Positions 14,143-60,227 of a DNA stretch of 64,000 nucleotides are shown here, in pieces; the stretch's first letter is position 1, and each line of letters starts with the position of its first letter. The notes below the pieces were generated by a model, which was given only the letters and a program-made list of their open reading frames with translations, made no database searches and was not told where the DNA came from. The translations under genes and the position numbers were made by a program. Origin of the DNA: Candidatus Omnitrophota bacterium (GTDB taxonomy: Bacteria; Omnitrophota; Gorgyraeia; Zapsychrales; Fredricksoniimonadaceae); assembly GCA_015233675.1 (NCBI GenBank), contig JADFXH010000011.1, positions 526 to 64,525 on the forward strand. Direction: 5' to 3'.

Positions 14143-14152
14143 AACCAAATGA

Positions 14153-14395
14153 ATGGAGAGCTATATGTTGGAAGATGGATCTTTAGTTAGACATAATAAA
14201 ACAGGTTATGAAGGTTTAATTGATGGTCAAACAAGTTTAAGATTGTGGTTTACCGGCAATAAGGAGTGCGAATTCCAATACCGTGTTAAGTTCCCAAATC
14301 AGGATAAACGTTTAATTGCGCCGGAGGAAGATTTAACGTTACTTAAAGCTCCTGTTATCAAGCCTAAGAGAAAATACTCAAGCCCTCCTTCATGA
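14153..14395 (+). CDS. Small hypothetical protein
   Basis: 80-codon ORF following dbpA. GGAGAG lies before the internal ATG at 14165, which may be the real start. Confidence 0.4.
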   Translation: MESYMLEDGSLVRHNKTGYEGLIDGQTSLRLWFTGNKECEFQYRVKFPNQDKRLIAPEEDLTLLKAPVIKPKRKYSSPPS

Positions 14396-14498
14396 TAGCG
14401 ATCACCCTAAAACGATAGAGTCGTTTTGACTCTTGACGCGGCCGGACATAATAAAACGCATAGAGAGAATTTATTCCCTCCCTTTTGGTTTAGCCTTG

Positions 14499-14597
14499 CA
14501 GACTGTGCCACATGAAGGATCATTTTATAAAAGTGGATTCCCGCTTGCGCGGGAATGACAAAATCTATCATGTCATCCCCGCGAAAGCGGGGATCCA
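14499..14597. repeat. Composite dispersed repeat, copy 1: conserved leader plus two opposed palindromic units
   Basis: cagactgtgccacatgaagg...tggattcccgcttgcgcgggaatgaca...tgtcatccccgcgaaagcggggatcca. Nearly identical to 50829-50945. Confidence 0.8.
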
Positions 14598-14611
14598 GCG
14601 CCAAAAAAGTA

Positions 14612-14647
14612 TTCCCTCCCCCTTGTGGGGATGGTTAGGGAGGGGGG
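14612..14647. repeat. CCCTCCCCC...GGGGAnGG hairpin repeat, copy B
   Basis: ttccctcccccttgtggggatggttagggagggggg. Confidence 0.7.
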
Positions 14648-14939
14648 ATTAAAAGTTGAGGCATTGAATTTCCCTGCCGATTTGTTCCCGAATGACCGGT
14701 TACGATAAATGACATTCGGCATTATCACCCATCCATCCAAGTTATTATCCCTGCAATCTTCGGGTCATGTAGAACGAAAACATAGCCGAAAAGGTCGCGG
14801 TTAATTTTTTTTGGATATTTGTGGGCAACTAAAAAAGTGGGAGGTATAATAATACGTCTGCTAAATAGCGGGAATCCAAGATAGGCAAGCCAATGGGGCA
14901 AGTGAGGAGCATTAAAGATCGAATTGTTTTAAATGGATT

Positions 14940-15191
14940 ATGATAGAAACCGAACAATGCCTTGAAAAATTTCATTGGGAAACGAGCCAAGACGAAAGTT
15001 ACCAATATTATGTTTGTGAGCCCAATGACCAGTTTGAATTTATAAATTTGGTAATTTACATCAAAAACCATGGTTATGTCATCACAATTCTGGGGAAATC
15101 ATACGTTTGTGTTGATATAGGCGAGTATTTGTACTGGACAGCGTGGGATTCAATAGAAAAAATTAATCTCATCAATCGAATGCCTATATAA
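14940..15191 (+). CDS. Hypothetical protein (weak call)
   Basis: 83-codon ORF in a very AT-rich region. No convincing Shine-Dalgarno and no recognised motifs. Confidence 0.3.
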   Translation: MIETEQCLEKFHWETSQDESYQYYVCEPNDQFEFINLVIYIKNHGYVITILGKSYVCVDIGEYLYWTAWDSIEKINLINRMPI

Positions 15192-15432
15192 TAGGATAGC
15201 CCTGAAATAAATAGCGGGCAGGAAATAATAATTCAGATATTTTAATTGAATCAAACCTCTTCTTAGCATCTCCGACGGGTTTTCTGTTGTAATCACTCCT
15301 TAAAAATCGTCCTCACTGCCTTGTTTTCTTTCTAAAATGTGTTACCTTTAAAGAAGGAGTTAGAGGGGCCCCGCCCCTAAGGGGTAAAAAATTTCCCTCG
15401 CCGTTCCGAAATGGGGCGGGACGGCATCCACT

Positions 15433-15465
15433 GGGCGGTGACAATAGTTGCCGCCCTACCTTTTT
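15433..15465 (+). terminator. Hairpin + T-run at the end of a GC-rich intergenic island
   Basis: GGGCGG (15433-38) pairs with CCGCCC (15451-56), then taccTTTTT. Confidence 0.3.
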
Positions 15466-15613
15466 GCTTTCTCATAACAGTTAGTGCAATTAAAAGAGAC
15501 ATTAATAGGACATTTTAGTTTTGAATTGACAACATTAATAGAGACATGTGCATTTATGATAAATACATGTTATACTATCAATGTAAACACAAAATAGCGA
15601 TGAGGAATAATTT

Positions 15614-18252: not shown

Positions 18253-18297
18253 AATAATGTGGTATGGTTTGAATAAGTTACAATTTTGAATTTGGAA

Positions 18298-18378
18298 TTG
18301 CAAACTTGAGGAAACTTAAGGGCGCAAAGGATCGAGCCTAAACCCGGCCGTAGGCGGGGCATGGTAGTCGAGCTGCAT
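18298..18378 (+). ncRNA. Candidate c-di-GMP-I (GEMM-I) riboswitch aptamer
   Basis: GCAAAC / UUGAG-GAAA-CUUAA (GNRA hairpin) / GGGCGCAAAGG / GAGCCUAAACC...GUAGGCGGGGC matches the remembered conserved core of the Vc2 aptamer. Confidence 0.6.
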
Positions 18379-18395
18379 AAAGGTTGGATTTTCAG

Positions 18396-18617: not shown

Positions 18618-20927
18618 ATGAACAAACATAAAGTGCTTTTGAAAATTGCAGTTGGTTTGTTTGTTGTATTGTGCTGTACAGTTTTTCCTTATCAGGCTCA
18701 GGCGCAAACATTATCTAATGCAGTTGTTGTTGCAGAAAATTCGATCAACAATTATTTTGCGGCGTTATTAGCAGGAACTAGTGTGCCGAGTGCGCAAAGT
18801 TTTATGACCACCATAATGCAGTCAGTGACTTCAACAGCAGACCAGCAGACAGTGCAGGCATATTATGAACAGAATGCAGTTAGTACAGCTAAAACACAGA
18901 TAGACAATTACTTCAAAGTGATAATAGCAGGCAATCCTGTGCCGAATGCTCAAAGCTTCATGAGCGCGGTAATGTCGTCAGTCTTGGCAACAGCGGACCA
19001 GCAGACGGTAAATACGTATTATGAACAATCAGCAGTTACGACAGCTGAAATTCAGATAAACAATTACTTCAGTGCGATAATAGCAGGTAATACTGTGCCG
19101 AATGCTCAAACTTTCACGAGCGCAGTCATGGCAGCGGTGCTGGCCCAAGCAGATCAGCAGGCAGTATATACGTATTATGAAAAAACTGCAGTTAGCACAG
19201 CTGAAGGCCAGATAAGCAATTACTTCAGTGTAATATTAAAAGGTACGACTGTTCCGAATGCTCAAAGCTTCATGAGCGCGGTAATGTCATCAGTCTTGGC
19301 AACAGCAGACCAGCAGACAGTGCAGGCATATTATGAACAGAATGCAGTTAGTACAGCTAAAACACAGATAGACAATTACTTCAAAGTGATAATAGCAGGC
19401 AATCCTGTGCCGAATGCTCAAAGCTTCATGAGCGCGGTAATGTCGTCAGTCTTGGCAACAGCGGACCAGCAGACAGTACAAAATTATTTCAATCAGCAAC
19501 AGGTTATCTCCTTATATCAATATGCATTGAAAGTCATCAGCTTCTATAGCGCTACGCCAAACAGTGCTACCCTGACGACGGCTGTTGGGGCAGTAATGCA
19601 GCTTCAGCCATATAATAATGTTGCGGCTTTATCAGGTTTAGGGCTTTATGATGACGCTCTCAACCAGTTAATGCAGGCAGTCAGCAAGAATTTGTCTAAT
19701 ACAAACAACGTTTCTTCGATTATTCCTCCTGCCAACATAGACGGCAGTTTTGGCACATCCGTTGCTGTAGATGGGGTAGGGAATATATTCGTATCTGCGC
19801 CTTCCAATGCTGTTAATGGCAGGGGCATCATTTACGAATTTGGTAAAAACAGTAATAATGTATGGACGGTAATTAACCAAATTTATCCGATGATTCCTGT
19901 GCCCGGAGACCATTTTGGCCGTGTATTTAGCATCAATGGCAATACATTAGCGGCCAGCTCGGAGCCTGCTAATGGCCTGGCCAAGGTGTATATTTTCGGT
20001 CTTCAAAGTAATAAATGGATACAGCAAACCTCTCTGGATTTAACTACTGTGTCTAACTTCAAAGTGGTCCAGAAAATCTCTTTGGCTTCGACTGTTAACA
20101 CAATAGTGGTTGGTTTGCCGCAATTCGGATATTATTTGGTATTTAACCACGTTTTTGATTATTCTACGACTACTAATATGTTAGTCAGTGATCAATGGCG
20201 TTTAATGCTTTCAGGAAGCTTCACCGTTGGTTCTGTTATTAATTCTGTTGCCGCAGATGGCTTGTATATTGTAATAGGGAGCCAAGTTCCCGGCAGTAAT
20301 GGCACCGTCACAGGTTCTGTTCGCATTCTTTCAGGAGCCATAAATGTGGTGCGGATTAATTCGAAAAATGAATATACTATGAACTGGACTATTGATACGA
20401 GTGTATCCGGCCCGAAAGGGTTTGGCCAGTCTGTTGCAATTTATCAAGATCCTGTGCTGGCATTGCCAATAGGAAATCCTGTTGTAAGCATGGTTCCGAT
20501 ACCGGCGGTCAATAAAATTACCCTTGCCATTGGTTCTCCTGTTGAACATAACGGTGCAGGGGCTGTTTATACCATGGTAAAAAGTATTGCTACAGGCACA
20601 AATAGGCTCGTTTGGGCTGGTCTTAATCCTGTCCAGTTAGTTATGCCGTCATTGGCAACAGCCGCTGGACATGGGCTTGCATTAAAAAGGGCTACTCTAT
20701 TGGTATCAGCCAATAGTACAGTTATTGCTCCTTCGATTGTTATGGCATATCAATTTAATGCCGCTACCAATCAATGGTCTTGGGCTTATACAATGAGCAA
20801 TGTTAACTCATTGTTTGGAAGCAGCCTGGCTACTAACGGACAAACGGCAGTCGTTGGCAGTCCTAAGGCTGTTAATGATACGAATACAGCTGATATTAAT
20901 CAGGTACAGGTTATCGGCCTTAAATAG
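18618..20927 (+). CDS. Secreted protein: signal peptide, five 52-aa tandem repeats, C-terminal FG-GAP-like beta-propeller
   Basis: Signal peptide ...PYQAQAQ. Repeats NYFxxIIAGNxVPNAQSFMSAVMSSVLATADQQTV. FG-GAP-like FGTSVAVDG..., FGQSVAI..., FGSSLATNGQTAVVGSP. AAGGAG before the ATG. Confidence 0.85.
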   Translation: MNKHKVLLKIAVGLFVVLCCTVFPYQAQAQTLSNAVVVAENSINNYFAALLAGTSVPSAQSFMTTIMQSVTSTADQQTVQAYYEQNAVSTAKTQIDNYFKVIIAGNPVPNAQSFMSAVMSSVLATADQQTVNTYYEQSAVTTAEIQINNYFSAIIAGNTVPNAQTFTSAVMAAVLAQADQQAVYTYYEKTAVSTAEGQISNYFSVILKGTTVPNAQSFMSAVMSSVLATADQQTVQAYYEQNAVSTAKTQIDNYFKVIIAGNPVPNAQSFMSAVMSSVLATADQQTVQNYFNQQQVISLYQYALKVISFYSATPNSATLTTAVGAVMQLQPYNNVAALSGLGLYDDALNQLMQAVSKNLSNTNNVSSIIPPANIDGSFGTSVAVDGVGNIFVSAPSNAVNGRGIIYEFGKNSNNVWTVINQIYPMIPVPGDHFGRVFSINGNTLAASSEPANGLAKVYIFGLQSNKWIQQTSLDLTTVSNFKVVQKISLASTVNTIVVGLPQFGYYLVFNHVFDYSTTTNMLVSDQWRLMLSGSFTVGSVINSVAADGLYIVIGSQVPGSNGTVTGSVRILSGAINVVRINSKNEYTMNWTIDTSVSGPKGFGQSVAIYQDPVLALPIGNPVVSMVPIPAVNKITLAIGSPVEHNGAGAVYTMVKSIATGTNRLVWAGLNPVQLVMPSLATAAGHGLALKRATLLVSANSTVIAPSIVMAYQFNAATNQWSWAYTMSNVNSLFGSSLATNGQTAVVGSPKAVNDTNTADINQVQVIGLK
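18720..19500 (+). repeat. In-frame 156-bp tandem repeats (about 5 units) inside the CDS
   Basis: Period is 156 bp. 18833-19006 is identical base for base to 19301-19474 (174 bp, offset 468 = 3 units). Confidence 0.9.
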
Positions 20928-21077: not shown

Positions 21078-23587
21078 ATGAAGTCCGACAATAAAAGGAT
21101 GGGGCTGTTTTCTTTTTCCTTTCAAGACTATTTTAAAGTTTTTGTTATCGCGTCGGCCTATTTTTTTGCCCACGAAATTGCATTCTTCTTCCCTGATTCA
21201 CAAAAAGTCATTATGCTCGTTTGGCCGGCCGGCGGGGTTAGTTTGGCCGCGTTTTTGTTGAACCCTCGGCGGCTATGGCCTCTGTTGACATTGGTTTTTT
21301 ATATTTCCGGTATTACGGCAGATCTTGCTATGTCCGGCCGTCCATTGATGATGAGTCTGGGCTTCATGACCGGAAATATGGTTGAATCAATTTGTTGTGC
21401 TTGGCTTATCATTTATTGGTCAAGGGGTTTTCAGAATTTCAATAAGGCCAGGGAAGTGCTGGCACTTATTGTCAGTGCGGTTTTTGTGAATGCGTTCAGT
21501 TCCTGCATCGGCGCTTTAACCTCCATGCTTACCAGCGGAGATTCATTGTTGGGTTCATGGCAAACGTGGTTTATTGCAGACGGTCTTGGTATTCTGCTGG
21601 TTGGGCCGTTTATTGTTGCTTGGAGCAGGGTTAAGGAATTAAAAGAAATTTTATGTTTTAAAAAGATAATAGAAGGGTCAGCTTTTCTAGCAGTCTGGAT
21701 AATTTTTGTCTGGCTTATTTTTCATTCCAACCAATTCGAATTTCACCTTCGTCCTTACATGTTAGTTGCCTTGCTAGCTTGGCCGGCTATACGATTTGGC
21801 CAGCGTGGCGTCACGTTTGCGAATATGCTTGTGTTTGTTATTGCCATCTTTAGTCCAATGATTATTAGTGGGCCCGCTCCTTGGGTGTGGCATGGGCAAA
21901 GTTCAGATTTAGCCGGCCGTTTAATGGATTTACAAATATTCCTGGGGTTTATGTCGGTCGTAGGTTATCTGCTGGCAGCCATTTATGCTGATTTTATATT
22001 GGCGTCGTCTCAAAGGGAAGAGGCACTCGATGATCTCAAAAAAAGCCGGCAGCTTTTAGAAAGTGTGGTTGAAGGAACGCAGGATGCGGTTTTTGTGAAA
22101 GATTTTAAAGGACGGTATCTTCTTATTAATAGTGCGGCTTGTCAGGCTACTGGCAAGAATGCCAGCGAAATTTTGGGGCAGGATGACACTTTTATTTTTC
22201 CTGCCGATCATGCCCGGCTTTTGATGGAGCGCGACCGTCAGGTGCTGGACAATAAAAAGATTATTACTTTTGAATATGACTTAGTCAATTTGAATGGGAA
22301 CAAGCGGTCAGTCCATTCCCTTAAAGGCCCATTGTTTGATAAAGACGGTCAGGTGATGGGGCTGTTTGGCATTAGCCGTGACATTACCGAGCGCAAGCAG
22401 GTCCACCAACAGTTGGTAGATACGATCAATTATATGCAAACCTTTATTTCTACTTCGCCGATCGCCATCATTACATACAAGGCATCAGGACAGGCTGTCT
22501 CGGCAAATACAGCAGCCGCGAAGCTGGTGGGGACTTCAATTGAGAATTTAATGAAACAGAATTTTCGTAACTTGGATTCCTGGAAAAGAGATGGATTTCT
22601 CGATAAGGCCCAAAAAGCTTTGGATACCGGGCAGGAACAATTGCTGGAATGCTATACCGTGAGCAGTTTTGGGGCCGCATTTTGGATTTCTTGCCGGTTT
22701 GTCCCGTTTAACTATACAGCCCAGCCGCATTTGTTGTTTTTGGCAACGGATATCAGCGATAAGAAACAGGCGGAAAAATACGCACTTGAAATAACTGCCG
22801 AAAAAGCAGCTGCCAAAACAGCACAGAAGAAGGCGGTTGAAATTGCAGCGGCGTATCAGGAATTACAAAAAGCCCGGGATTTATTAACCCAGTCTGAGAA
22901 ACTATCCGCTATAGGAGTCCTGGTCGCCGGAATAGCGCATGAGTTAAACAGTCCCCTTTCAGGGATCTTGGGGATTGTCAGGTTTTATTTGGAACATAAA
23001 AATCCTGACGACAGGGAGTATCGGGATCTCGAACAAGTATTGAAAGCCGCAGAACGCATGTCAAAAATCGTTCAAGGCCTTCGGGATTTCTCAAGGCCTT
23101 CGGTAAAAGAGGAAGAAGAATTGAATTTTAACTCAATGATCGAATCAGTGCTTAGTTTCGGTCAAAAAATAATGATCGGGCCCAATATAGATTTACATAA
23201 GAATTTCGAGAAAGATCTTCCTATGATCAAAGGGGATAAAAATCAGGTTCAGCAGATCATTATTAATTTAATGTCTAATGCCACAGATGCCATGCAAAAA
23301 AAGGTACGCTAAAAATATTTACCCGGACTGTTGTAGTCAATGAAAACCGTTTTGTTGAAATGGAGTTTGTGGATAGCGGGTGTGGTATAAAAAAAGAAGA
23401 TTTATCCAAAATTTTTGATCCTTTCTTTTCGACCAAAAGGCAGGGAGAAGGTACAGGGCTTGGTCTTTCCGTGGTTTATTCAATAATAAAAGAGCATAAC
23501 GGGGAAATTCTGGTTGAAAGTCCGCCGATGGGCCAAGAAAAAGGGGCATCATTCAAGGTCAGGATGCCGGCTATATCAGGAGGGTAA
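21078..23587 (+). CDS. Sensor histidine kinase (MASE1-PAS-PAS-HisKA-HATPase_c) that needs a -1 frame change at 23297-23303
   Basis: ORF 21078-23312 ends inside the N-box (NLMSNATDAMQKKVR*). The -1 frame continues GTLKIFTRTVVVNENRFVEMEFVDSGCGI...GTGLGLSVV to 23587. Confidence 0.8.
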
Positions 23588-23588: not shown

Positions 23589-23975
23589 ATGTCAGCAGAG
23601 AATATATTGGTCGTTGACGATGAGGAAATAATCGGTATTGCTTTGAGCAGAGAGCTAAGTGACAAGGGGTATAATGTTGATTATGTATTAAACGGTGCAG
23701 AAGCGCTGAAAGTTGCAAAACATAAAAAATACGATATTGTTTTTATCGACAAGAGCATGCCGGGAATGGATGGCATTGAAACCTGCAGGGCAATAAAGCA
23801 GATCAATCCGTGTTCAATGGCGATATTTATGACAGGTTCTTTTGATCATGATAATATACTTAAAGAGAAGGAATTTGTGCAAGCGGGAGGCGGGTCGTTT
23901 TTTTTATATAAACCGTTTGCTCGAGGTGAGGTGCAGGAAGTTGTCCAAAAGGTGTTGGGTAAAACAAATAGTTAA
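23589..23975 (+). CDS. Single-domain response regulator (CheY-like)
   Basis: ILVVDDEE...DIVFIDKSMPGMDG...MTG...YKPF. AGGAGGG lies before ATG 23589. The 23514 start is rejected. Confidence 0.88.
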   Translation: MSAENILVVDDEEIIGIALSRELSDKGYNVDYVLNGAEALKVAKHKKYDIVFIDKSMPGMDGIETCRAIKQINPCSMAIFMTGSFDHDNILKEKEFVQAGGGSFFLYKPFARGEVQEVVQKVLGKTNS

Positions 23976-23995: not shown

Positions 23996-24026
23996 ATTAT
24001 GTCATCCCCGCGAAAGCGGGGATCCA
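23996..24026. repeat. TGTCATCCCCGCGAAAGCGGGGATCCA palindromic unit, solo copy
   Basis: Same unit as at 14571-14597 and 50919-50945. Confidence 0.8.
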
Positions 24027-24103: not shown

Positions 24104-24481
24104 ATGGTCAACACATCGTTAGCAGGTAAAAAGATTTTGTATGTCGAAGATGATGAGGCTAGCCGGTATTTAATGGGTTACATGGCAGAAGAAATCGGAT
24201 GCGGGCTTGTGACTTGTTCTAATGGTGAACAAGCGATCGATAAAATTCGTACGGAGAAATTTGATATCATCTTTATGGATGTGCGCATGTCTAGAATGAA
24301 TGGCTATGAGACCTCCCGAATGATTCGGCAGATGGACAAAGAAATACCGATTATTGCCCTGACGGCACATGTCATGGAATGGGTCCCTCTAAAATGCAGG
24401 GAAGCTGGCATGAATGGATTTGTTCCTAAGCCTTGTTCTGTGGCGAGCATTGAGAAAGAACTCTGCCGGTGTTTATTATAA
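24104..24481 (+). CDS. Single-domain response regulator; paralogue of 37201-37599
   Basis: ILYVEDDE...DIIFMDVRMSRMNGYE...IIALTAHV...GMNGFVPKP. Confidence 0.88.
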   Translation: MVNTSLAGKKILYVEDDEASRYLMGYMAEEIGCGLVTCSNGEQAIDKIRTEKFDIIFMDVRMSRMNGYETSRMIRQMDKEIPIIALTAHVMEWVPLKCREAGMNGFVPKPCSVASIEKELCRCLL

Positions 24482-24529: not shown

Positions 24530-24889
24530 ATGAATATTGTTTTATACATCATTCTGGGATTATTGGCAGGCGTTTTTTCCGGAATTTTTGGTATCGGCGG
24601 CGGGCTGGTGATCGTGCCGGCTTTGGTGCTTCTGGCCGGCTTCACGCAGCATCAGGCACAAGGGACAACGTTGGCGCTTTTAGTGCCTCCGATAGGGTTA
24701 TTAGCGGCGATACGCTATTATCAGGCGGGCAATGTTAATCTTTTTGTTGCCGCATTGATCTGTGTTGGCTTTATTGCCGGGAGCTATTTCGGAGCTGACT
24801 GGGTTCAAAAATTATCTGACCCCGTGTTAAAGAAAGCATTTGGCGTCTTTTTGTTCCTGATTTCTATGAATATGATTTTTATGAAATAA
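24530..24889 (+). CDS. Half-size TauE/SafE (TSUP) family membrane protein
   Basis: GIGGGLVIVPALVLL...QGTTLALLVPPIGLLAA. Four TM segments, 119 aa. Confidence 0.7.
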   Translation: MNIVLYIILGLLAGVFSGIFGIGGGLVIVPALVLLAGFTQHQAQGTTLALLVPPIGLLAAIRYYQAGNVNLFVAALICVGFIAGSYFGADWVQKLSDPVLKKAFGVFLFLISMNMIFMK

Positions 24890-27090: not shown

Positions 27091-30000
27091 ATGAAACTTG
27101 CCTATAAAATCAGCCTTTTCTTTTTGTTTGTTTCTTTTGTTTGCTTAAGCCTTGCCCTAGGATTTGTGTATCAGTCATTTCAAAGAACTTTGGTTCGTTC
27201 CATATCCTCATCCTTTCAAACTATCGTCCACTCCCGTACAAAGCATATTGAGACATACCTGGATATGGCAAAGGATTCTGTGATCCAGGCATCCCAAAGT
27301 GTGGTGCTTCCCCGGCTGCTTAAAATAAGCCCGGATGACCCTTCTTATAAAGAAGCACAATTAAACGGGGTCAAGCTTTTAAAAGCCAAGAAAGAATCTG
27401 ACGATTCTGTTTATGAATATATGCTTCTTGACGCGTCGGGCCGCATCGTGGTGGCGAGCGATGAGACAGATGTGGGCCAGGATAAATCTAAGGATGCTTA
27501 TTTTTGGGAAGCCCGCAGGGGTGTTTATGTTAAAGATGCCTATTTTTCGTTGACTAAAAAGTTGCCTTTAATGGCCATATCCGTTCCTTTGTTTGACGCT
27601 AAAGGCGGGACTTTTTTGGGTGTGCTGGTGGAAATGCTTAAACTGGATGACCTCAACGCTATTATGACTGACAGGTCGGGTTTAGGCGAGACGGGAGAGG
27701 TTTTTATTATTAACAAGCGTGGGTATATGATAACGCCTTCCCGTTTCCTGAAAAATACGTTCTTGAAACAAAAGGTAGATACGCCCAATGCAAGGCTCGC
27801 CTTGGAGCACAGGGACGAGCGGACTCTTTTAGGTATAAACGAGAACGTTTTCGATGATTACCGCGGGGTTAAGAGTTTGGGGGATCATGATTATATACCT
27901 GAAATGCAATGGCTCGTTTTAGCGAGGATAGATGCATCAGAAGTTTTTCTGCCTTTAAAGAGGATACAGTACAGTTTTATTTGGATTTTTTTATTAACGG
28001 GCGCCCTCTCTTGGGTGATGGGTCAGCTGATTGGCCGGATGATCAGCTCTCCTCTTAAGAAATTATATGAGGGAGCCCAGATATTAGGCCGCGGCGATTT
28101 GGACCATAAGGTTGGCCTTTCCAATAAGGATGAGGTCGGGGATCTCTCACGGGCCTTCGATAGCATGGCCTCTAACCTGAAGAAAACGACATCTTCTATC
28201 GCTGTCCTTGATAAGGAGATATCCCGTCGTCAAGAAGCAGAAGATGTCCTGCAGGAAAGTGAGAAGAGATTTTTCACCGTTTTTTATTCATCCCATGACG
28301 CGATGCTTTTGATTAACGCAAACAGGTTTGTGGATGCTAATGAGGCCGCCGCCCGTATGCTAGGATATGCCACTCGGGAGGAGTTTCTCAAGACTCACCC
28401 CTCCGAGTTGTCTGCGCCCATACAACCTGACGGGAGAAATTCGTTCGATAAGGCTGAGGAAATGATGCGCCTTGCTTACGAAAAGGGGTATCACCAATTT
28501 GAATGGCTGCACCGCAAAGCCAGCGGTGAAGACTTTCCGGTTCAGGTGTCACTGACGCCTATTATGCTCAAAGGAGAGAGCCTTCTTCATTGCGTCTGGA
28601 CTGACCTGACCCGGCAAAAGCAGGATGAACAGCGCCTTTATGTTGTTCAGCAAAATCTTAAAGAGCAGGCCAGCCAACTGGAAGCTGCTCTGAAAGAATC
28701 TCAAAAGTCCCGTGAGGTCCTTGCCAGTATGCTCGAGGACAATAATCTTATGCGTCAGCGGGTAGAGCGGGCGGCTATGAGGGTTGAATTGATATTGTCT
28801 TCCACCAGTGATTGTATCCTCGGATTAGACAAGGAGGGCAAGGCGACCTTTGTTAACTTGCAAGCGTTGAAACTACTGGGCCATGAACTTAGTGATTTGA
28901 TTGGCAAGGACATGCACTCTATTTTACATCACTCTCATCCTGACGGAAGTCCTTTTGCCCTCAATGAATGTATGACCTATCAAACGTTGCAGGACGGTCA
29001 ATCCCGTTTCGGGGAAGAATTTTATTGGAGAAAAAATGGCAGTATTTTTCCTGCTGAATTCAGCGCTGTTGCGCTTAAGGAAGAGGGGAAGACCATAGGG
29101 GTCGTATTTACTTTCCATGACATCACCGAGCGCAAGAGAAACGAACAAATAATGCATTCCCGCATGAAGCTTATTGACTATTCAGCGGACCGTTCGATTC
29201 AGGATTTCCTGCAATTGGCGTTGGATGAAGTGGAGTCCATTAGCGAAAGCCAAATGGGTTTTTATCATTTTGTTAATGAAGATGAAAAGATAATATCTTT
29301 ACAAAGCTGGTCCACGCGTACAAAGAAAGAATTTTGCAAGGCTAAGGGTGAAAGTGAGCATTGTAGTTTGGATAAGGCCGGTGTTTGGGCTGATTGCGTG
29401 CATGAGCGCAAGCCCGTTATCCATAACAATTATAATTCACTGCCGCATAGACGGGGGATGCCTGAGGGGCATGCAGTAGTTGTCCGTGAAATGGTTGTGC
29501 CTATTATTCGTGAGGAAAAGGTTGTGGCGATTATGGGTGTGGGCAACAAGAAGGATGATTATACCCAGGAGGATGTTGAGCTTGTCAGTTACCTCGCTGA
29601 TATTGCATGGGAGCAGGTTAAGAAAAAGTTAATTGATAAAGAGATTAAAGAAAGGGACCAGCGGATCAGGGGCATCACAGATTCCGCGCAGGATGCGATC
29701 ATAATGATGGATCCTTTGGGGCAGATCAATTTCTGGAACCCTTCGGCTGAGCGCATCTTAGGCTACTCTCCTGCAGAAGCGCTGGGAAAGAATTTTTATG
29801 AGCTGTTGTCTCTTTCTCGTTTTGAGAACACACCTTTAGTGGCATATCCGCAATTTTTAAAGAACGCTCAGGGCGCTGAAGTCGGGAAAACAATAGAGCT
29901 TGAGGTTTATCGACGTGATGGGGTTGTTATTCCGGTTGCATTGTCGCTCTCGGCGATCAAACGTGATGACGGCTGGCATGCTATTGGAATTATGAGGGAT

Positions 30001-31611
30001 ATTACCGAACGCAAAGAGACGGAGAAGGGGTTGATTGATGCCAAAAATGCGGCTGATGCGGCCAACAAGGCCAAAAGTGAATTTTTGGCCAATATGTCCC
30101 ATGAGATACGCACGCCTTTGAATGGAATTTTGGGCTTTAGTTATTTACTGCGTTCGACTAATTTGGATGAAAAGCAAAAGACATATCTCAACACGGTCAC
30201 CTCCAGCGGGGATTTGCTGTTAAGTGTCATTAATGAAATTCTGGATTTTTCAAAATTGGAAGCGGGGAAAGTTCAGCTGGAAAATATTGATTTTGATTTA
30301 GGGAATTTAGTTTATGACATTTTTAGATTAGCTTTAGTAAAGTCTGAAGATTTCAAAATTAACTCTTATGTCGACTGGGAGGATCAACTGCCTCACTGGG
30401 TCAAGGGAGATCCGACCCGTATACGGCAGATCTTATTAAATCTTCTTAATAATGCCGTCAAGTTTACAGATCAGGGAGAAATAGGCCTTATTATTTCTGT
30501 ACAGCAGAAATCCGAAGAGCGCACGGTTGTTAAATTTTGTGTTAAGGATTCGGGAATAGGCATTGCACAGGACAAAAAGGATTCATTGTTTCAAGCGTTT
30601 ACTCAAGTTGATTCCTCAACTACGCGCAAATATGGAGGGACTGGTTTAGGGCTTGCCATTTGCAAGAAATTAGTTACTGCGATGGGAGGGGAAATCTGGA
30701 TTGAATCACAGGAGGGCAAGGGAAGCCAGTTTTTCTTTACGATTCCTTTTGTCCCGGGAACCTCATTGCTCCAGCAGCCTATTGAACCGCTGTCAAAAGA
30801 CAAATTAATTGGAAAAAGTATTTTATGCGTCGATGATCACCTGTCTTCTCTGGAGATTTTGTCCCGGTATTGTCATGAGGCCGGATTAAGGGTCATGGGC
30901 TCTTCCAGCGGCAAGCAAGCATTGCAAAAATTAGATGATTGCCTTACCTCGGGACATTTGCCTGATCTAATATTAAGCGACATTATGATGCCCTTGATGG
31001 ATGGGCATCTTTTGGCGGAGAAAATCCGTAGTAACCCGAAATTTGATAAGATAAAAATTGTAGCTGTTACATCAGATGCCCGCGTAGGTACCTGCAGCAT
31101 GGCCCAGGGGAAAGGATTCAACGCTTATTTATCCAAACCTGTTTCAAAAGATGATTTGCTTAAGGTCATTTGTACACTGTTGGGGGATCAGCGAGGGGCT
31201 TCCTCTACGATCATTACACGGCACGTGGCCGATGAGGTAAGCCTTAAAGGCCTTCGAATTCTGGTAGTTGATGATAATACCTCTAACCGGAACCTGATGG
31301 AAGCTTTTTTAACTATGTGGGGATGTGTCTGTGATTCTGCTGTTGATGGCCGGGAGGCCGTTGATAAGATCAAGGCGAATTATTATAATATATGCCTGAT
31401 GGACCTGCAAATGCCGGTGTTGGATGGTATTGAAGCAACCAGGATCATCCGTTCCCAGATCACCAAAGAATTGCCTATCATTGCTTTAACTGCTGCCGTA
31501 ATGAAGAAAGATATTGAGAATGCCTATGGGGTGGGGATGAATGATTTTCTTCCAAAACCTATCAATGTCAATCAGGTAAAAGCAATGCTTATAAAGTACG
31601 GCCGTTCCTAG
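27091..31611 (+). CDS. Hybrid sensor histidine kinase (Cache-HAMP-PAS-PAS-GAF-PAS-HisKA-HATPase-REC-REC)
   Basis: H-box SHEIRTPLNGILGF, G-box GGTGLGLAICKKLV, and two receivers (DLILSDIMMP, ICLMDLQMPVLDG). Confidence 0.92.
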   Translation: MKLAYKISLFFLFVSFVCLSLALGFVYQSFQRTLVRSISSSFQTIVHSRTKHIETYLDMAKDSVIQASQSVVLPRLLKISPDDPSYKEAQLNGVKLLKAKKESDDSVYEYMLLDASGRIVVASDETDVGQDKSKDAYFWEARRGVYVKDAYFSLTKKLPLMAISVPLFDAKGGTFLGVLVEMLKLDDLNAIMTDRSGLGETGEVFIINKRGYMITPSRFLKNTFLKQKVDTPNARLALEHRDERTLLGINENVFDDYRGVKSLGDHDYIPEMQWLVLARIDASEVFLPLKRIQYSFIWIFLLTGALSWVMGQLIGRMISSPLKKLYEGAQILGRGDLDHKVGLSNKDEVGDLSRAFDSMASNLKKTTSSIAVLDKEISRRQEAEDVLQESEKRFFTVFYSSHDAMLLINANRFVDANEAAARMLGYATREEFLKTHPSELSAPIQPDGRNSFDKAEEMMRLAYEKGYHQFEWLHRKASGEDFPVQVSLTPIMLKGESLLHCVWTDLTRQKQDEQRLYVVQQNLKEQASQLEAALKESQKSREVLASMLEDNNLMRQRVERAAMRVELILSSTSDCILGLDKEGKATFVNLQALKLLGHELSDLIGKDMHSILHHSHPDGSPFALNECMTYQTLQDGQSRFGEEFYWRKNGSIFPAEFSAVALKEEGKTIGVVFTFHDITERKRNEQIMHSRMKLIDYSADRSIQDFLQLALDEVESISESQMGFYHFVNEDEKIISLQSWSTRTKKEFCKAKGESEHCSLDKAGVWADCVHERKPVIHNNYNSLPHRRGMPEGHAVVVREMVVPIIREEKVVAIMGVGNKKDDYTQEDVELVSYLADIAWEQVKKKLIDKEIKERDQRIRGITDSAQDAIIMMDPLGQINFWNPSAERILGYSPAEALGKNFYELLSLSRFENTPLVAYPQFLKNAQGAEVGKTIELEVYRRDGVVIPVALSLSAIKRDDGWHAIGIMRDITERKETEKGLIDAKNAADAANKAKSEFLANMSHEIRTPLNGILGFSYLLRSTNLDEKQKTYLNTVTSSGDLLLSVINEILDFSKLEAGKVQLENIDFDLGNLVYDIFRLALVKSEDFKINSYVDWEDQLPHWVKGDPTRIRQILLNLLNNAVKFTDQGEIGLIISVQQKSEERTVVKFCVKDSGIGIAQDKKDSLFQAFTQVDSSTTRKYGGTGLGLAICKKLVTAMGGEIWIESQEGKGSQFFFTIPFVPGTSLLQQPIEPLSKDKLIGKSILCVDDHLSSLEILSRYCHEAGLRVMGSSSGKQALQKLDDCLTSGHLPDLILSDIMMPLMDGHLLAEKIRSNPKFDKIKIVAVTSDARVGTCSMAQGKGFNAYLSKPVSKDDLLKVICTLLGDQRGASSTIITRHVADEVSLKGLRILVVDDNTSNRNLMEAFLTMWGCVCDSAVDGREAVDKIKANYYNICLMDLQMPVLDGIEATRIIRSQITKELPIIALTAAVMKKDIENAYGVGMNDFLPKPINVNQVKAMLIKYGRS

Positions 31612-31643: not shown

Positions 31644-34600
31644 ATGGCAAAAAAGAGAACAATGCCCCGGGCAAAAGACGGAGAATTTCCGATCGTCGCG
31701 ATCGGAGCATCAGCCGGCGGACTGGAAGCCTTCAGTGAACTTTTAAAGAATTTGCCTCCTGATACGGGCATGGCCTTTGTGCTTGTCTGTCATCTGGCCC
31801 CGATGCATAAAAGCATGCTGACAGAAATTATCACCCGCATTACCAGGATGCCGACACAAGAAGTTAAAAACCGCATGCCGGTTTACCCCGATCATGTTTA
31901 TATCATCCCGCCAAATAAAAAAATGACCATTTCCAACGGGAAATTTCGTCTTGGTTTGCGCACTGAAACGTTGGGGCTTTATCTGCCGATTGATTGTTTT
32001 TTCACTTCATTAGCTAAAGACAGAGGCAGTCAGGCCATAGGTGTCATTCTTTCCGGAGCCGCTAGCGACGGTATCAACGGGCAGAAAGCCATCAAGTCAA
32101 TGGGAGGCATCACCTTCAGCCAGGACCCTGCTACGGCCAAACAAGACAGTATGCCCAAAGGTGCTATTGCATCTGGGTTTGTTGACTATGTCCTTAATCC
32201 CAAGGCCATTGCCGGCCAGTTGGTCAGCTTAAGTCAACATCTGCCGCTCATCAAAACGAAAACAAAAGGGCTTGAGAAATTATTGCTGTCTGCCCAGGAT
32301 GATTTGACCAAAATTCTTGTTTTATTGAAATATTTTAACGGGGTAGATTTTACGCATTATAAAAAGGCCACTATTGAGCGCCGCATTAAACGCAGGTTGT
32401 TGTTGACGCAGAAGAGCACCTTAAAGGAATATTTAAAATATTTGCGCCGCAACCCAAAAGAGGTGGAACTTCTTTTTCAGGATATGCTTATCAACGTCAC
32501 TAATTTTTTTCGTGACCCGAAATTGTTTAAAGCCTTAGAGAAAAAGGTTTTTCCAAACATATTCAAACAAAAGCCTCCTGATCAAGCCGTAAGGATATGG
32601 GTGCCGGCGTGTTCTACGGGCGAGGAGGCGTATTCTCTGGCGATCTGTTTGCTTGAAATTTTAAAGTCGAAAAAGAGGTCTTGGCCCATTCAGGTTTTTG
32701 CCACTGATGTTAACGAGGCGGTGATCAGAAAAGCGCGGAGAGGATTGTATCCCGAAAGCATAAAAGAGGACGTCCCCCCGCAGATCCTTCATCGTTATTT
32801 TGTCAAGGAACCGGGCGGCTGGCGGGTCGTTAAATCGGTGCGTGATATATGTGTTTTCGCGGCCCAGGACCTGACACGTGATCCGCCGTTTTCCAAGCTG
32901 GATCTTATTAGTTGCCGTAACATGCTCATCTATATGGACCGGAAACTGCAAAAAAAGATAATTTCTTTATTTCACTATGGTTTAAATCCATCCGGTTCTT
33001 TAGTTTTGGGTTCAGCTGAATCTATCTTTGGTTTTACCGATCTTTTTAGTGCCGTGGACAAAAGACTCAAAATTTATAGGAAAAAGGAATCTTGGGCGCG
33101 GCCTGCAGTGTATTTTGAACCGGGCCAGTATCCAGTTGGCCAAATCACGACAGGTAATGAACGCACAGCCGCGTATAAAAAACAGCCTATAGCCTTTGAA
33201 ATGCAGGCCGAAGACGTACAGGCCAAAGATGAGGAATTGCGTTCTGCTTTGGAGGAGATCCAAAGCGCCAATGAAGAACTGCAGAGTTCCAACGAGGAGC
33301 TGGAGACATCCAAGGAAGAGCTGCAGGCGTCCAATGAAGAGATGGTCACCCTTAATGACGAACTCTCTGTTAGAAACGCTGAACTGGGCAAACTCAACAG
33401 CGATATAAGGAACCTTTTTAACAGCACGCACATCCCGGTCATCATGGTCGGCAGGGATTTTTGTATCTATCGTTTTACGCCAATGGCGCAAAAAGTATGG
33501 AACCTCATCCCTTCAGATGTCGGGCGAAAGCTTAAAGATATTAACCCCAATATCCATGTGCCTCATTTAGAGGTGATGCTGGTCGATGCGATCGATCACT
33601 TGAAAATGACTGAGAAGGAAGTGCAGGATAATGAGGGGCACTGGTATTGTGTAACCGTTAGGCCGTATAAAACAGTGGACAATAAAATTGACGGGGCAGT
33701 TATCGTTTTATCGGACATTCATACCATCAAGCTGGCAGGCCGGCAGATCGAGGCTTTAGGCGAGTATTTTGAGAATATTGTTAAAGCAGTCCCTGATCCT
33801 TTGATCGTGCTGGACAAAAATTTGTGTGTCAGGACGGCCAACCAGTCTTTCTATGATCAATTCAAAGTTTCACCGAAACAAACAGAAGGCCATCTTTTAT
33901 ATGATTTAGGAAATCATCAGTGGGACCTTCCGGCTCTTCGTAAATTGTTAAAAGAAGTCTATGCTAATAATGTGCCGGTCAACGATTTTGAAATGAGCCA
34001 CAAGTTTCCGCGCATCGGCCAAAAAGTAATGCTGCTTAACGCCAGAATTGTCGTCGAAAATATAGCCGGCGAACGGTTGATCTTGCTTTCCATTAAGGAC
34101 ATTACTGAAAGGAAGGAGACAGAGAAAAATATTGTCAGGTTGTCATCGTTTCCTGAGATCAATCCCAATCCTATTTATGAAGTGGATTTTAAAGGAAAGA
34201 TTACCTATGCAAATCTTGCGGCCAAGGAATTAAAAGCTGACGGACTGGCGCCTCTAATCGAGAACGGCTTAAAAGAATTGGTTGATATTTTTCGTCGTAA
34301 CAGGAAAAAAGAAATCCTTCGCGAATTTCAGGCCGCGGACCGCTGGTACCTGCAATCCTTATATAAAGTTCCCGATATAGATGCTTTAAGAATATATAAT
34401 ATTGATATCACTGAGCGCAAGCGGGCGCAAGATGCCCTGCAGGTGAGCAGGGAACGCCTTGAGTTGGCTTTACTTTCATCAAGAATGGCCACCTTTGACT
34501 GGGACATCATCAGGAATAAGCGAACTTGGAGCGAGGGTGTTCATAAGTTGTTAGGGACTAAATCAGAGACCTTCACCGGATCAGCCGAAGAGTTTTTCCG

Positions 34601-37073
34601 GATAATACATCCGGAGGACCGCAGTTTTGTACAGGCGGCCATTTCCAAAGCCATCGAAACAGGAATTTATGAGACTGAATATCGTGCCCTTTGGCCGGAT
34701 GGCAGTTGTCACAACATTGCCGCCAGAGGGAATGTCCATCATGACAACGCGGGCAGGGCTGTTTCGATGACAGGAGTTTGCTGGGACATCACCGAGAACA
34801 AGCAGGTTGAAAATGCCCTGCAAGAAAGTGAAGAGCTCTATCATTCCTTATTTGAGAATATGCTTAATGGTTTTGCTTATTGTCAAATGTACTTCGACGA
34901 TAAAGGAAGCCCCGTTGATTTCACGTACCTGTCTGTAAACACGGCTTTTGAAAGATTGACAGGTTTGAAGGATGTCATCGGCAAAAAAGTGACCCAAGTC
35001 ATTCCGGGCTTACGAGAATCTGATCCGGGAGTGTTTGAAATTTATGGCCGAGTCTCAAAGACAGGCAAGCCGGAAAGTATTGAAATATTTGTTAATGCCC
35101 TGCAAATGTGGTTTGAAATATCTGTGTACAGCCCTAAAAGAGGATATTTTGTGGCCGTCTTCGATGTTGTTACCGCCCGTAAAGAGGCGGAAAAGCAGAT
35201 GAAGGACACTATTAATTATGTCCAGACGATTTTGTCCGCCTCCCCCATAGCCATTCTCACCTTTAAGGCCACGGGAGAGAATGTTTCAGCAAACCAAGCG
35301 GCCGCGAAGTTGATCGGCACTTCTGTTGAGAGTTTGAATAAACAGAATTTTTACCAGCTTGATTCCTGGAAAAATTCTGGACTTCTTGAACGGGCCACAA
35401 GAGTTTTAAAAACAAGGCAGGAGGAAGTCTTTGAAGCGCACTTTACAAGCAGTTTCGGGTCTCCAATCTGGATCGCTGGCCGTTTAGCTTCATTTCAGAT
35501 TGGAGGCCAGCCTCATTTGTTGTTGATGGCGGTGGACATCAGTGAGCGCAAACGGGTTGAAGATATTTTGCGCAAGAGCGAGGAACAATATCGTGAATTG
35601 GTCCAGAACGCCAATAGTGCCATTATCCGCTGGAAAGTTGACGGGACCATTGCCTTTTTTAACGAATATGCTCAAGACTTATTTGGCTGGCGAGCTGACG
35701 AAGTGATCGGTAAACACGTTAATATCATTGTCCCTTCTCAAGACAGTACAGGGGCTGATTTGAAGAATCTAGTATTGGATATCGCCCGGCATCCGGAAAA
35801 TTATGTTCATAGTGTTAATGAGAATATTTGCAGGGATGGACGAAGGGTCTGGATGGCCTGGACCAATAAGCCTATGTTTGATGAGAATGGGATGGTAACG
35901 GAGATTCTTGCTGTTGGTTTTGACAATTCCGCGCTTAAAGAGTCGGAAATAAAACTTCGAGAGAGAGAGGAACAGTTGAAGTTGTTTGTTGACTATGCCC
36001 CCGCTTCCATTGCCATGTTCGACACGCAAATGCGCTACATAACGGCCAGTCAGCGATGGCTGGCGGACTATGGTTTGTCAGGGCAGGACTTGCGAGGTCG
36101 CAGTCATTACGAGGTGTTTCCCGAGATCCCGGAAAGATGGAAAGAAATCCATCGTCGCTGTATGGCTGGCATAGTTGAGCGGGCTGAAGAAGATCAGTTT
36201 GACAGGCTTGACGGTCACAAGCAGTGGGTCCGCTGGGAGATCAGGCCATGGTATACGGCTCTTGGATCGGTGGGAGGGATTATCATTTTTCTTGAGGACA
36301 CCACCGAGCGCAAATTGGCGCAGGATATGCTCAAGCAGGCGAAGCTGAAAGCCGAAGATGCCAACAGGTCCAAGAGCGAGTTTTTAGCCCATGTTGCGCA
36401 TGACCTGCGTACGCCTTTGAATGCAATTGTCGGATTTTGTTCTTTACTCACCTCCGAGAGTGCGGCTGATAAACGGCCTAGAATGATCGAGGTCATCCGG
36501 ATTCAGTCCCAAAATATCTTGACTCTCATCAATGAGATCCTTGATGCCGCGAGACTGGAGTCTCACAAGATCACGTTGCGCAATGAGGGATTTGACTTGA
36601 AAGCAACCGTGGACATGGCCGTGGAATTATTACGCCTCGAGGCAGGTTCAAAGGATGTTAAAATATCTTATTCCTATGATCAAAATATCCCGCGGATCAA
36701 AGGGGATGCGATCAGGGTTGCCCAGATCCTGAATAATCTGCTGAGTAACGCGTTAAAATATACAGAACAAGGCGAGATCACTTTCATCGTAGACCTCGTT
36801 TCAGCAGGCACAGATAAGAAAAAGTGCCATATCAAGTTTTTTATAAAAGACACCGGTTGGGGGATCCCACAGGAAAAGCTTTCGGCTATTTTTGATCCAT
36901 TTGTCAGGGCGCATGAGTTTGTCGGTGATAAAGATATGGCAGGTGTCGGTCTGGGGCTGTATATCTGCAAACTCCTTGTTCATCTGATGGGAGGCCAAAT
37001 TAGTGTTGAGTCTCAGGAGGGCAAAGGTACAACATTTGTTTTTGACTTGAATTTTGAGACAGCAGCACAGTAA
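31644..37073 (+). CDS. CheB-methylesterase / CheR-methyltransferase fusion with coiled coil, multiple PAS domains, HisKA and HATPase_c
   Basis: IVAIGASAGGLEAF (CheB-like), CSTGEEAYSLAI (CheR SAM site), EELQSSNEELETSKEELQASNEEM coiled coil, H-box AHDLRTPLNAIVGF, G-box GVGLGLYICKLLV. Confidence 0.9.
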   Translation: MAKKRTMPRAKDGEFPIVAIGASAGGLEAFSELLKNLPPDTGMAFVLVCHLAPMHKSMLTEIITRITRMPTQEVKNRMPVYPDHVYIIPPNKKMTISNGKFRLGLRTETLGLYLPIDCFFTSLAKDRGSQAIGVILSGAASDGINGQKAIKSMGGITFSQDPATAKQDSMPKGAIASGFVDYVLNPKAIAGQLVSLSQHLPLIKTKTKGLEKLLLSAQDDLTKILVLLKYFNGVDFTHYKKATIERRIKRRLLLTQKSTLKEYLKYLRRNPKEVELLFQDMLINVTNFFRDPKLFKALEKKVFPNIFKQKPPDQAVRIWVPACSTGEEAYSLAICLLEILKSKKRSWPIQVFATDVNEAVIRKARRGLYPESIKEDVPPQILHRYFVKEPGGWRVVKSVRDICVFAAQDLTRDPPFSKLDLISCRNMLIYMDRKLQKKIISLFHYGLNPSGSLVLGSAESIFGFTDLFSAVDKRLKIYRKKESWARPAVYFEPGQYPVGQITTGNERTAAYKKQPIAFEMQAEDVQAKDEELRSALEEIQSANEELQSSNEELETSKEELQASNEEMVTLNDELSVRNAELGKLNSDIRNLFNSTHIPVIMVGRDFCIYRFTPMAQKVWNLIPSDVGRKLKDINPNIHVPHLEVMLVDAIDHLKMTEKEVQDNEGHWYCVTVRPYKTVDNKIDGAVIVLSDIHTIKLAGRQIEALGEYFENIVKAVPDPLIVLDKNLCVRTANQSFYDQFKVSPKQTEGHLLYDLGNHQWDLPALRKLLKEVYANNVPVNDFEMSHKFPRIGQKVMLLNARIVVENIAGERLILLSIKDITERKETEKNIVRLSSFPEINPNPIYEVDFKGKITYANLAAKELKADGLAPLIENGLKELVDIFRRNRKKEILREFQAADRWYLQSLYKVPDIDALRIYNIDITERKRAQDALQVSRERLELALLSSRMATFDWDIIRNKRTWSEGVHKLLGTKSETFTGSAEEFFRIIHPEDRSFVQAAISKAIETGIYETEYRALWPDGSCHNIAARGNVHHDNAGRAVSMTGVCWDITENKQVENALQESEELYHSLFENMLNGFAYCQMYFDDKGSPVDFTYLSVNTAFERLTGLKDVIGKKVTQVIPGLRESDPGVFEIYGRVSKTGKPESIEIFVNALQMWFEISVYSPKRGYFVAVFDVVTARKEAEKQMKDTINYVQTILSASPIAILTFKATGENVSANQAAAKLIGTSVESLNKQNFYQLDSWKNSGLLERATRVLKTRQEEVFEAHFTSSFGSPIWIAGRLASFQIGGQPHLLLMAVDISERKRVEDILRKSEEQYRELVQNANSAIIRWKVDGTIAFFNEYAQDLFGWRADEVIGKHVNIIVPSQDSTGADLKNLVLDIARHPENYVHSVNENICRDGRRVWMAWTNKPMFDENGMVTEILAVGFDNSALKESEIKLREREEQLKLFVDYAPASIAMFDTQMRYITASQRWLADYGLSGQDLRGRSHYEVFPEIPERWKEIHRRCMAGIVERAEEDQFDRLDGHKQWVRWEIRPWYTALGSVGGIIIFLEDTTERKLAQDMLKQAKLKAEDANRSKSEFLAHVAHDLRTPLNAIVGFCSLLTSESAADKRPRMIEVIRIQSQNILTLINEILDAARLESHKITLRNEGFDLKATVDMAVELLRLEAGSKDVKISYSYDQNIPRIKGDAIRVAQILNNLLSNALKYTEQGEITFIVDLVSAGTDKKKCHIKFFIKDTGWGIPQEKLSAIFDPFVRAHEFVGDKDMAGVGLGLYICKLLVHLMGGQISVESQEGKGTTFVFDLNFETAAQ

Positions 37074-38155: not shown

Positions 38156-39091
38156 ATGCCCCAAAGCACATTACCTTCAGATTTCGAAATCAGGCTAAAG
38201 GAAATATTTCCTCAAAGGCAGGCATCTCTTTTTGGGCCCAGGCGTTATCAGTCTTTTCGTATTAATACGCTTAAAATTACTGTTGAAGATGCACACGCCA
38301 TGCTTTCTGTTCGAAAAGTAGACTTCAAAACAGCAGGCTTTTGTCCGTATGCCGTGATTGTGGAAAAATTGGCGGCTCAGGAACTTTTAAAGTCAGAACT
38401 TGTTCAAGAAGGGCTTTTATATGCTCAAGGTTTAGAGAGTCTGTTGCCGGTGATTGTTTTAGATCCGCGTCCCAATCAGCGGGTGCTTGATATGTGCGCA
38501 GCCCCGGGAAGTAAAACTTCTCAAATAGCCATGCATATGCATAATGAAGGGATCTTGAAAGCCAATGAGCCTGTACGCCAGAGGCTCTATAGGTTAAAGT
38601 CAGTCTTGCAGCTGACCGGGACCAAAGCCCAAATATCTTCGGTAGACGGACGGCGTTTCAAAGAGTACAATGGCCCTTTCGATCGTATTTTGGTTGACGC
38701 TCCCTGCAGTACTGAGGGGCGTTTTATTATTAATGATCCTAAAAGTTTTGCATACTGGAGCGTGCGTAAGATTAAAGAAATGTCCCATAAGCAAAAGGGA
38801 CTTTTACTCAATGCCAGCAGGCTTTTAAGCCCCGGCGGGATTTTAGTTTATGCCACCTGTACTTTTGCTCCGGAAGAAAATGAAGAGGTGGTGGATTGGT
38901 TTTTGCGTAAGACCGATGGCCGTTTTGAACTTGACCCCATCCATATAGAGGGGGTTGCGACTTATCCTTGTTTGACCCATTGGCAGAAGAGAACGTACGA
39001 TTTGCGTATCAGGGATGCGGCCCGAATCTTGCCCGATGAGAGAATGGAAGGTTTTTTTATTGCCAAATTCACGAATTCTCACTATAAATGA
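38156..39091 (+). CDS. RsmB/RsmF/NOP2-family rRNA (cytosine-C5) methyltransferase
   Basis: DMCAAPGSKT, DAPCSTEG, ATCTFAPEENE. Confidence 0.85.
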   Translation: MPQSTLPSDFEIRLKEIFPQRQASLFGPRRYQSFRINTLKITVEDAHAMLSVRKVDFKTAGFCPYAVIVEKLAAQELLKSELVQEGLLYAQGLESLLPVIVLDPRPNQRVLDMCAAPGSKTSQIAMHMHNEGILKANEPVRQRLYRLKSVLQLTGTKAQISSVDGRRFKEYNGPFDRILVDAPCSTEGRFIINDPKSFAYWSVRKIKEMSHKQKGLLLNASRLLSPGGILVYATCTFAPEENEEVVDWFLRKTDGRFELDPIHIEGVATYPCLTHWQKRTYDLRIRDAARILPDERMEGFFIAKFTNSHYK

Positions 39092-39095
39092 TTAT

Positions 39096-50828: not shown

Positions 50829-50945
50829 CAGACTGTGCCACATGAAGGGTCAGTTTGTAATAGTGGATTCCCGCTTGCGCGGGAATGACAAACTTCTAAT
50901 AAATGACAAAATCTATTATGTCATCCCCGCGAAAGCGGGGATCCA
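50829..50945. repeat. Composite dispersed repeat, copy 2
   Basis: Same leader and both palindromic units as 14499-14597, with an 18-bp internal insertion (aacttctaataaatgaca). Confidence 0.8.
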
Positions 50946-60124: not shown

Positions 60125-60198
60125 CGGGGAGTAGCGCAGTTGGCTAGCGCGCTTGCTTTGGGAGCAAGAGGTCCCGGGTTCGAGCCCCGGCTTCCCGA
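60125..60198 (+). tRNA. tRNA-Pro (anticodon TGG)
   Basis: The cloverleaf folds by hand: acceptor CGGGGAG/CTTCCCG, anticodon loop TTTGGGA, T-loop TTCGAGC. No encoded CCA. Confidence 0.92.
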
Positions 60199-60227
60199 TT
60201 TTTCTTTACTCAACTCTTATCATTCCA

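Follow-up and report, generated by a model that had tools for sequence, protein, structure and literature searches.

The gene for a sensor histidine kinase is interrupted by a frameshift within its ATP-binding domain in the stretch of Candidatus Omnitrophota DNA analysed here (64,000 nucleotides, hereafter the window). We consider it very probable that the interruption is a non-programmed, one-base contraction of a homopolymer in an otherwise ordinary sensor kinase gene, the first in an operon with two response regulators, and that the dnaX-type heptamer found at the break would be a by-product of that contraction. We infer an indel, at the level of either the DNA or the assembly. A homopolymer-linked gene break of this sort is already a known kind of thing.

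The break in the kinase gene separates the N-box from the G1 box

Coordinates of the break and of the surrounding genes are summarized in Table 1. The upstream (0-frame) open reading frame ends GCC ATG CAA AAA AAG GTA CGC TAA, and its 744-aa product is identical to a protein deposited at NCBI (MBF0571787.1, 'PAS domain S-box protein', from a Candidatus Omnitrophica/Omnitrophota MAG in which the window belongs to a contig of 65,273 bp). Our re-reading of this tail agreed with the first-pass annotation, which had reported the same codons, the A_AAA_AAG heptamer in phase and the TAA stop two codons on. The -1-frame product read from G23303 (GTLKIFTRTVVVNENRFVEMEFVDSGCGIKKEDLSKIFDPFFSTKRQGEGTGLGLSVV...) ends at TAA 23585-23587. 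Since the -1 frame is closed on the upstream side by TAA 23276-23278, the change of frame is confined to 31 nt, 23279-23309.

Joining the two frames yields a protein of 836 aa, to which Pfam assigns MASE1 (residues 21-303), PAS (326-441), HisKA (615-673) and HATPase_c (719-832; model positions 1-109 of 111, E 5e-23). HATPase_c was thus complete across the break in the fused protein, bearing out the earlier proposal that the -1 frame continues the ATP-binding domain through 23587. The H-box (AHELNSP) and the N-box (NLMSNATDAM) lie in the 0-frame part, and the G1 (DSGCGI), F (FDPFFSTK) and G2 (GTGLGL) boxes are kept in the -1-frame segment. Domain order and boxes are those of MASE1-PAS-HisKA-HATPase_c kinases in general, but in the window gene a loss of frame separates the N-box from the G1 box. 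The assembled ORF ends past the N-box, and HisKA and a full HATPase_c come together in one polypeptide only if the gene is repaired or the frame is shifted. The deposited annotation carries no frameshift flag; the N-terminal part was entered as a normal protein, and a gap in the accession numbers indicates that the C-terminal kinase fragment is probably a separate CDS in the deposit.

The ATG of the first response regulator lies 1 nt past the -1-frame stop of the kinase, and a GGAGGG motif at 23579-23584 falls within the last codons of the kinase. An operon with a pair of receiver-only response regulators is common to the window kinase and to its orthologue, described below.

Table 1. Features of the interrupted kinase gene and its operon (positions in the window)
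Feature	Position	Strand	Remark
0-frame ORF, 744 aa	21078..23312	+	MASE1-PAS-HisKA and N-box start of HATPase_c, then truncated
HATPase_c footprint across the break	23232..23572	+	fused residues 719-832
Nearest upstream -1-frame stop, TAA	23276..23278	+	5' limit of the 31-nt overlap
A7 homopolymer	23296..23302	+	inferred intact state A8 (CAA AAA AAA GGT), or missing G of the following GG
A_AAA_AAG heptamer	23297..23303	+	X_XXY_YYZ phase, codons AAA AAG in frame
-1-frame continuation	23303..23587	+	94 codons and TAA; rest of HATPase_c
0-frame stop, TAA	23310..23312	+	two codons past the heptamer
Response regulator 1	23589..23975	+	128 aa, receiver only; 71% identity to the first gene past the orthologous kinase
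Response regulator 2	24104..24481	+	125 aa, receiver only; 69% identity to the second gene past that kinase

Relatives carry a continuous gene

Besides the deposited truncated protein, the closest homologue was an 815-aa protein (P0002) with 54% identity over 98% of the query, which was found on an ENA contig (L001) and on a Logan contig (L002). Its domain order is the same as that of the window kinase, and the two response regulators that follow it (128 and 125 aa) are 71% and 69% identical to those of the window; on account of this shared domain order and of the same two response regulators downstream, we regard P0002 as the syntenic orthologue. At the break site its gene reads ATG CAG AAA AAA GGG GAG (MQKKGE) within a single continuous ORF. 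A scan of GTDB species representatives recovered five more Omnitrophota genes with 55-60% identity over the catalytic core, all of them continuous, in which the corresponding codons are CAG GGC AAG GGG, CAG AAT AAA GGC (at two loci), CGT AGA GAC GGG and GAT AAG AAA GGT. Adding one A to the window sequence (A8) produces a gap-free alignment of the window kinase to P0002 and to these five genes. Likewise, when tblastn was re-run over the 162 related loci taken from genome and metagenome collections, the site was spanned by a single HSP in each of them (162/162). The first-pass annotation had asked whether orthologues share the A7G sequence and the 0-frame stop or instead contain a single ORF, and the answer was a single ORF in all relatives examined; the break is therefore unique to the window sequence. 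The relatives conserve neither the heptamer nor the 0-frame stop, and the synonymous positions at the site vary freely.

Searches for the same species elsewhere led back to the deposit. A protein search returned the truncated protein at 100% identity and a next match at 54%, and exact-sequence look-ups for a conspecific contig gave nothing besides the NCBI record. The clusters containing the kinase and both response regulators had one member each. Genome and metagenome scans with a 263-aa query identified L001/L002 at 71% identity and everything else at 60% at best.

The proposed missing base, the age of the lesion and its origin

We propose that an ancestral ATG CAA AAA AAA GGT ACG (M Q K K G T, A8) would have become ATG CAA AAA AAG GTA CGC TAA. 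One A may have been dropped by polymerase slippage on the A8 run, either in replication or in sequencing and consensus building, and the resulting change of frame would place TAA in frame two codons later and cut off the G1, F and G2 boxes of the ATP-binding domain. Loss of a G from CAA AAA AAG GGT would yield the identical present sequence, and the missing base thus lies somewhere in A7GG; contraction of A8 to A7 is the simpler event.

The codons on either side of the break were compared with those of the orthologue. Identity is 72.3% over the 94 residues past the break (dN 0.171, dS 1.48) and 71.1% over the 152 residues that precede it, which run from DHp to the N-box (dN 0.174, dS 1.74), so that dN/dS is about 0.1 downstream of the break, the same as upstream. 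No decay and no stop codons were seen past the break relative to the orthologue, a result that, with dS near saturation, excludes only an old lesion. The same purifying selection on both sides of the break indicates that the break is very recent, artefactual or compensated.

As a survey of further breaks, we simulated a +/-1 change in each homopolymer of at least 5 nt, on either strand of the whole window. One other substantial fusion was obtained, at T7 39052-39058, joining ORF 38156-39091 to ORF 39015-39824. This candidate was rejected on two grounds: the product of the first ORF covers the full RsmB/F methyltransferase domain (Pfam positions 2-198 of 199) and has a normal C-terminus, and that of the second, a secretin, carries a signal peptide of its own. 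When about 45 other ORFs were scanned with Pfam, domain coverage was mostly complete and no further split gene emerged. Within the 64 kb, the kinase gene alone shows a break linked to a homopolymer. The occurrence of only one such break argues that the assembly is not generally prone to homopolymer errors, which counts somewhat against a pure artefact, and that the genome is not generally decaying, which counts somewhat against random pseudogenisation. One break per 64 kb is compatible with either a rare consensus error or an ordinary frequency of pseudogenes.

Homopolymer-frameshifted genes, whether recent pseudogenes or assembly indels, share with the window kinase a single-base change in a run that splits a conserved domain, repair by one base and a break found in one sequence only; such genes are routinely flagged in annotation, whereas the window kinase is unflagged. 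The first-pass annotation had listed four explanations, namely programmed production of two products, phase-variable switching, an inactivating mutation and a homopolymer sequencing error, choosing none of them and doubting the first. The last two were strengthened by the uniqueness of the break and by its one-base repair, and programmed production was weakened. We slightly favour a real and very recent mutation or population variant, for which we see nearly an even chance, over a consensus error in the MAG, which we hold to be almost as likely.

Possible phase variation of the A tract

The contraction might instead be one state of a switch. Under this explanation, which we regard as improbable, slipped-strand mispairing would switch the tract back and forth between A8, at which the full kinase is made (ON), and A7, which leaves the sensor truncated (OFF); the signalling pathway would thereby acquire a heterogeneity that is both heritable and reversible, and the MAG consensus would have caught the OFF state. 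The break falls exactly in a homopolymer within the coding sequence, a single step restores the gene, and intact downstream codons would be expected if the gene were often ON. A precedent is provided by flgS and flgR of C. jejuni, which are homopolymer-switched two-component genes (PMC3930126) and in which, as proposed here, a +/-1 change in a coding-sequence homopolymer of a signalling gene switches the protein off or on. However, switching of flgS and flgR is reversible, was measured at high frequency and occurs in a host-adapted pathogen, whereas the window tract is known from one consensus, is of ordinary length and is unconserved, being A6 in the closest orthologue and absent in the other relatives compared.

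The length of the tract also argues against a dedicated switch. The window holds 13 A/T runs of length 8, 31 of length 7 and none longer, mostly in intact housekeeping genes; those of 8 occur in the genes for a DEAD-box helicase, a QueE-like radical SAM protein and a methyladenine glycosylase, among others. Given how many A/T runs of 8 the window contains, an A8 tract in the kinase gene is unremarkable: at 7-8 nt it is no longer than the 13 other runs of 8, and every A8 run is mutable without selection for mutability. What stands of the earlier suggestion of phase variation is that A8 restores the ORF; it is undercut by the commonness of such runs in housekeeping genes and by the lack of conservation of the tract.

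The dnaX-type heptamer and the possibility of programmed frameshifting

The first-pass annotation laid stress on the heptamer being in the correct phase for a -1 slip, and this emphasis proved misleading. Deleting one A from CAA AAA AAA GGT necessarily gives CAA AAA AAG GTA, so that the phase constitutes no independent evidence of recoding. The A_AAA_AAG phasing is automatic because the upstream frame is fixed by the gene, and loss of an A from these Lys-Lys codons can give nothing else. If the kinase gene did undergo the contraction that we propose, then its dnaX-like phased heptamer would be an automatic footprint of the deletion and would carry no recoding signal. The motif itself is common: AAAAAAG is present in 51 copies in the window, compared to 42 +/- 7 expected from shuffles, and 6 of the 7 in-phase heptamers inside ORFs lie in unbroken genes with short -1 frames. 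The abundance of the heptamer is not beyond chance, and what is non-random is the coincidence of this copy with the break in a conserved domain.

Functional recoding, in which a ribosomal -1 shift or the addition of an A by RNA polymerase yields mostly the 744-aa sensor together with a minority of full kinase at a set ratio, is in our estimation very improbable. The phased heptamer, the 0-frame stop two codons on and the open, conserved -1 frame are all features that such a mechanism would have, and either lineage-specific recoding or an ON/OFF switch would likewise leave the downstream codons intact. Moreover, A_AAA_AAG is among the most shift-prone heptamers of E. coli when stimulators are present (PMC4066793), making some rescue possible, and there is precedent both for systems that use low-efficiency, stimulator-free frameshifting and for 'compensatory' frameshifting of indels (PMC5009743). 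Against this, the arrangement is absent from every relative examined, in which the site's synonymous positions are free to vary, and its phase is a necessary consequence of a deletion.

The site furthermore has neither an upstream nor a downstream stimulator of the kinds searched for, which at dnaX-type sites are an internal Shine-Dalgarno-like element some 10 nt 5' of the heptamer and a stable stem-loop or pseudoknot a few nt 3' of it. The 30 nt 5' of the heptamer contain no GGAG, GAGG, AGGA, AGGG or GGGG tetramer that could act as a Shine-Dalgarno-like element. Compared with dinucleotide shuffles, the predicted downstream folds showed no significant structure over 60 nt (MFE -7.0 kcal/mol, z 0.14) or 100 nt (MFE -18.1 kcal/mol, z -0.91), pseudoknots being outside the explicit search; the nearest downstream helix is of 5 bp and begins 22 nt past the heptamer. 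An Rfam scan of the window gave no match at the break site. The tetramer scan and the fold z-scores agree with the first-pass annotation, which had likewise seen neither a strong SD-like element nor a stem-loop beyond 4-bp stems. The frameshifting of E. coli heptamers that lack stimulators does not exceed about 10 times the 0.055% background (PMC4066793), which places the expected efficiency below about 0.5%, and the A or T runs for which transcriptional slippage in bacteria is on record are 9 long (PMC5009743), longer than the A7 found here. The absence of stimulators, the E. coli background and the run length of 9 reported for slippage together suggest that unprogrammed rescue would be at best a trace.

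E. coli dnaX (tau/gamma) carries the same A_AAA_AAG in the same phase, and a pair of 0-frame and -1-frame products is accordingly conceivable for the kinase. However, dnaX possesses an upstream SD-like element, a downstream stem-loop and conservation, none of which is found at the window site. The topology is also opposite: the shift in dnaX leads to the shorter product, whereas in the window kinase the shift is needed for the full-length and only catalytically competent product, which would then be the rare one. A dnaX-style pair of products, as first suggested, is thus disfavoured by the intact orthologues, which lack the heptamer-plus-stop arrangement, and by the absence of stimulators. It is likewise highly doubtful that A7 is genuine and maintained in the lineage, with cells making mainly a membrane-bound MASE1-PAS-DHp sensor and a small, tunable amount of full kinase through unstimulated -1 slippage or A-insertion by RNA polymerase ('leaky rescue').

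The signalling neighbourhood and other features of the window

The surroundings of the kinase operon are rich in signalling functions, including a c-di-GMP-I riboswitch, a PilZ protein, a CheX-like protein, a 1506-aa hybrid kinase, a 1809-aa CheB-CheR-PAS kinase and a GGDEF protein. The riboswitch aptamer (Rfam RF01051) occupies 18289-18380 (+) and scores 52.3 bits, where the gathering score is 35. Some 240 nt downstream of it begins ORF 18618-20927, which encodes a secreted-looking protein of 769 aa. This protein repeats a near-identical unit of about 55-65 aa (...NAQSFMSAVMSSVLATADQQTV...) several times and matches FG-GAP weakly. The 1809-aa protein is encoded by a single ORF, 31644-37073 (+), that combines a CheB methylesterase, a CheR methyltransferase, multiple PAS domains, HisKA and HATPase_c. 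Preceding it, 27091-31611 encodes the 1506-aa hybrid kinase, of the order dCache-HAMP-PAS-GAF-PAS and with two receiver domains.

Three intergenic copies of a palindromic element with the core CCCCGCGAAAGCGGGG were found, at 14577-14592, 24006-24021 and 50925-50940 (+), compared to 0.03 expected. Its conserved unit is about 37 nt (AAATCTATTATGTCATCCCCGCGAAAGCGGGGATCCA), and a second, upstream palindrome (TTCCCGCTTGCGCGGGAATGACA) accompanies two of the three copies. The copy at 24006 separates the two response regulator genes, which on the orthologue contig L001 have only a 41-nt spacer between them. These elements create spurious ORFs, with translations such as ...VIPAKAGIQ... and ...RLRGNDK.... 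The interval 14143-15613, between the gene for a DbpA-type helicase and a PilZ gene, comprises 1.47 kb without an ORF of 90 aa or more; within it lie one of the three palindromic elements and one run each of G6 and T8, and it gave no Rfam match.

Long A/T runs were also noted in individual genes. A T8 run at 23898-23905 (+) lies inside response regulator 1 (codons ...TCG TTT TTT TTA..., GSFFLY) and is unconserved in the orthologue (RTYYLY), representing a further long A/T run that is tolerated in an intact gene. ORF 49242-50813 (-), of 523 aa, contains three coding-strand T8 runs (+ strand A8 at 49537, 50043 and 50481) and is unbroken. Neither this ORF nor ORF 53479-57918 (+), of 1479 aa, had a Pfam match at E <= 1e-3.

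Two further ORFs merit comment. The 119-aa product of ORF 24530-24889 (+) aligns to the TauE/SafE sulfite exporter model over its second half alone (128-237 of 237); the space upstream does not suffice for a first half, which indicates either a half-size member of the family or a remnant. The only tRNA genes in the window are those for tRNA-Pro, tRNA-Arg and tRNA-His; none is for tRNA-Lys, whose repertoire bears on how slippery AAG is. The gene for tRNA-Pro(TGG), at 60125-60198 (+), overlaps the mechanical TTG start of ORF 60153-62489, which encodes a GAF-PtsP-like PEP-utilising enzyme. The true start of the ORF must lie downstream of this TTG, as the GAF domain begins at residue 50.

Implications

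The deposited annotation splits one kinase gene in two, and the locus merits either a label as frameshifted or a check against the reads. The biological weight of the break is small, and its significance is mainly cautionary: deleting a single base from Lys-Lys codons is enough to leave a dnaX heptamer in perfect phase where the gene breaks. With a real lesion, the gene would encode a kinase-dead sensor, with full-length protein arising through unprogrammed slippage in at most trace amounts, by analogy with E. coli well under 1%. In the unlikely event that A7 were maintained, a membrane sensor devoid of its ATP-binding domain could act as a phosphatase-only or dominant-negative partner. Finally, should a mixed A7/A8 population prove true, the tract would offer a first, if modest, indication that a homopolymer switches a sensor kinase in a phylum that is free-living and uncultivated.
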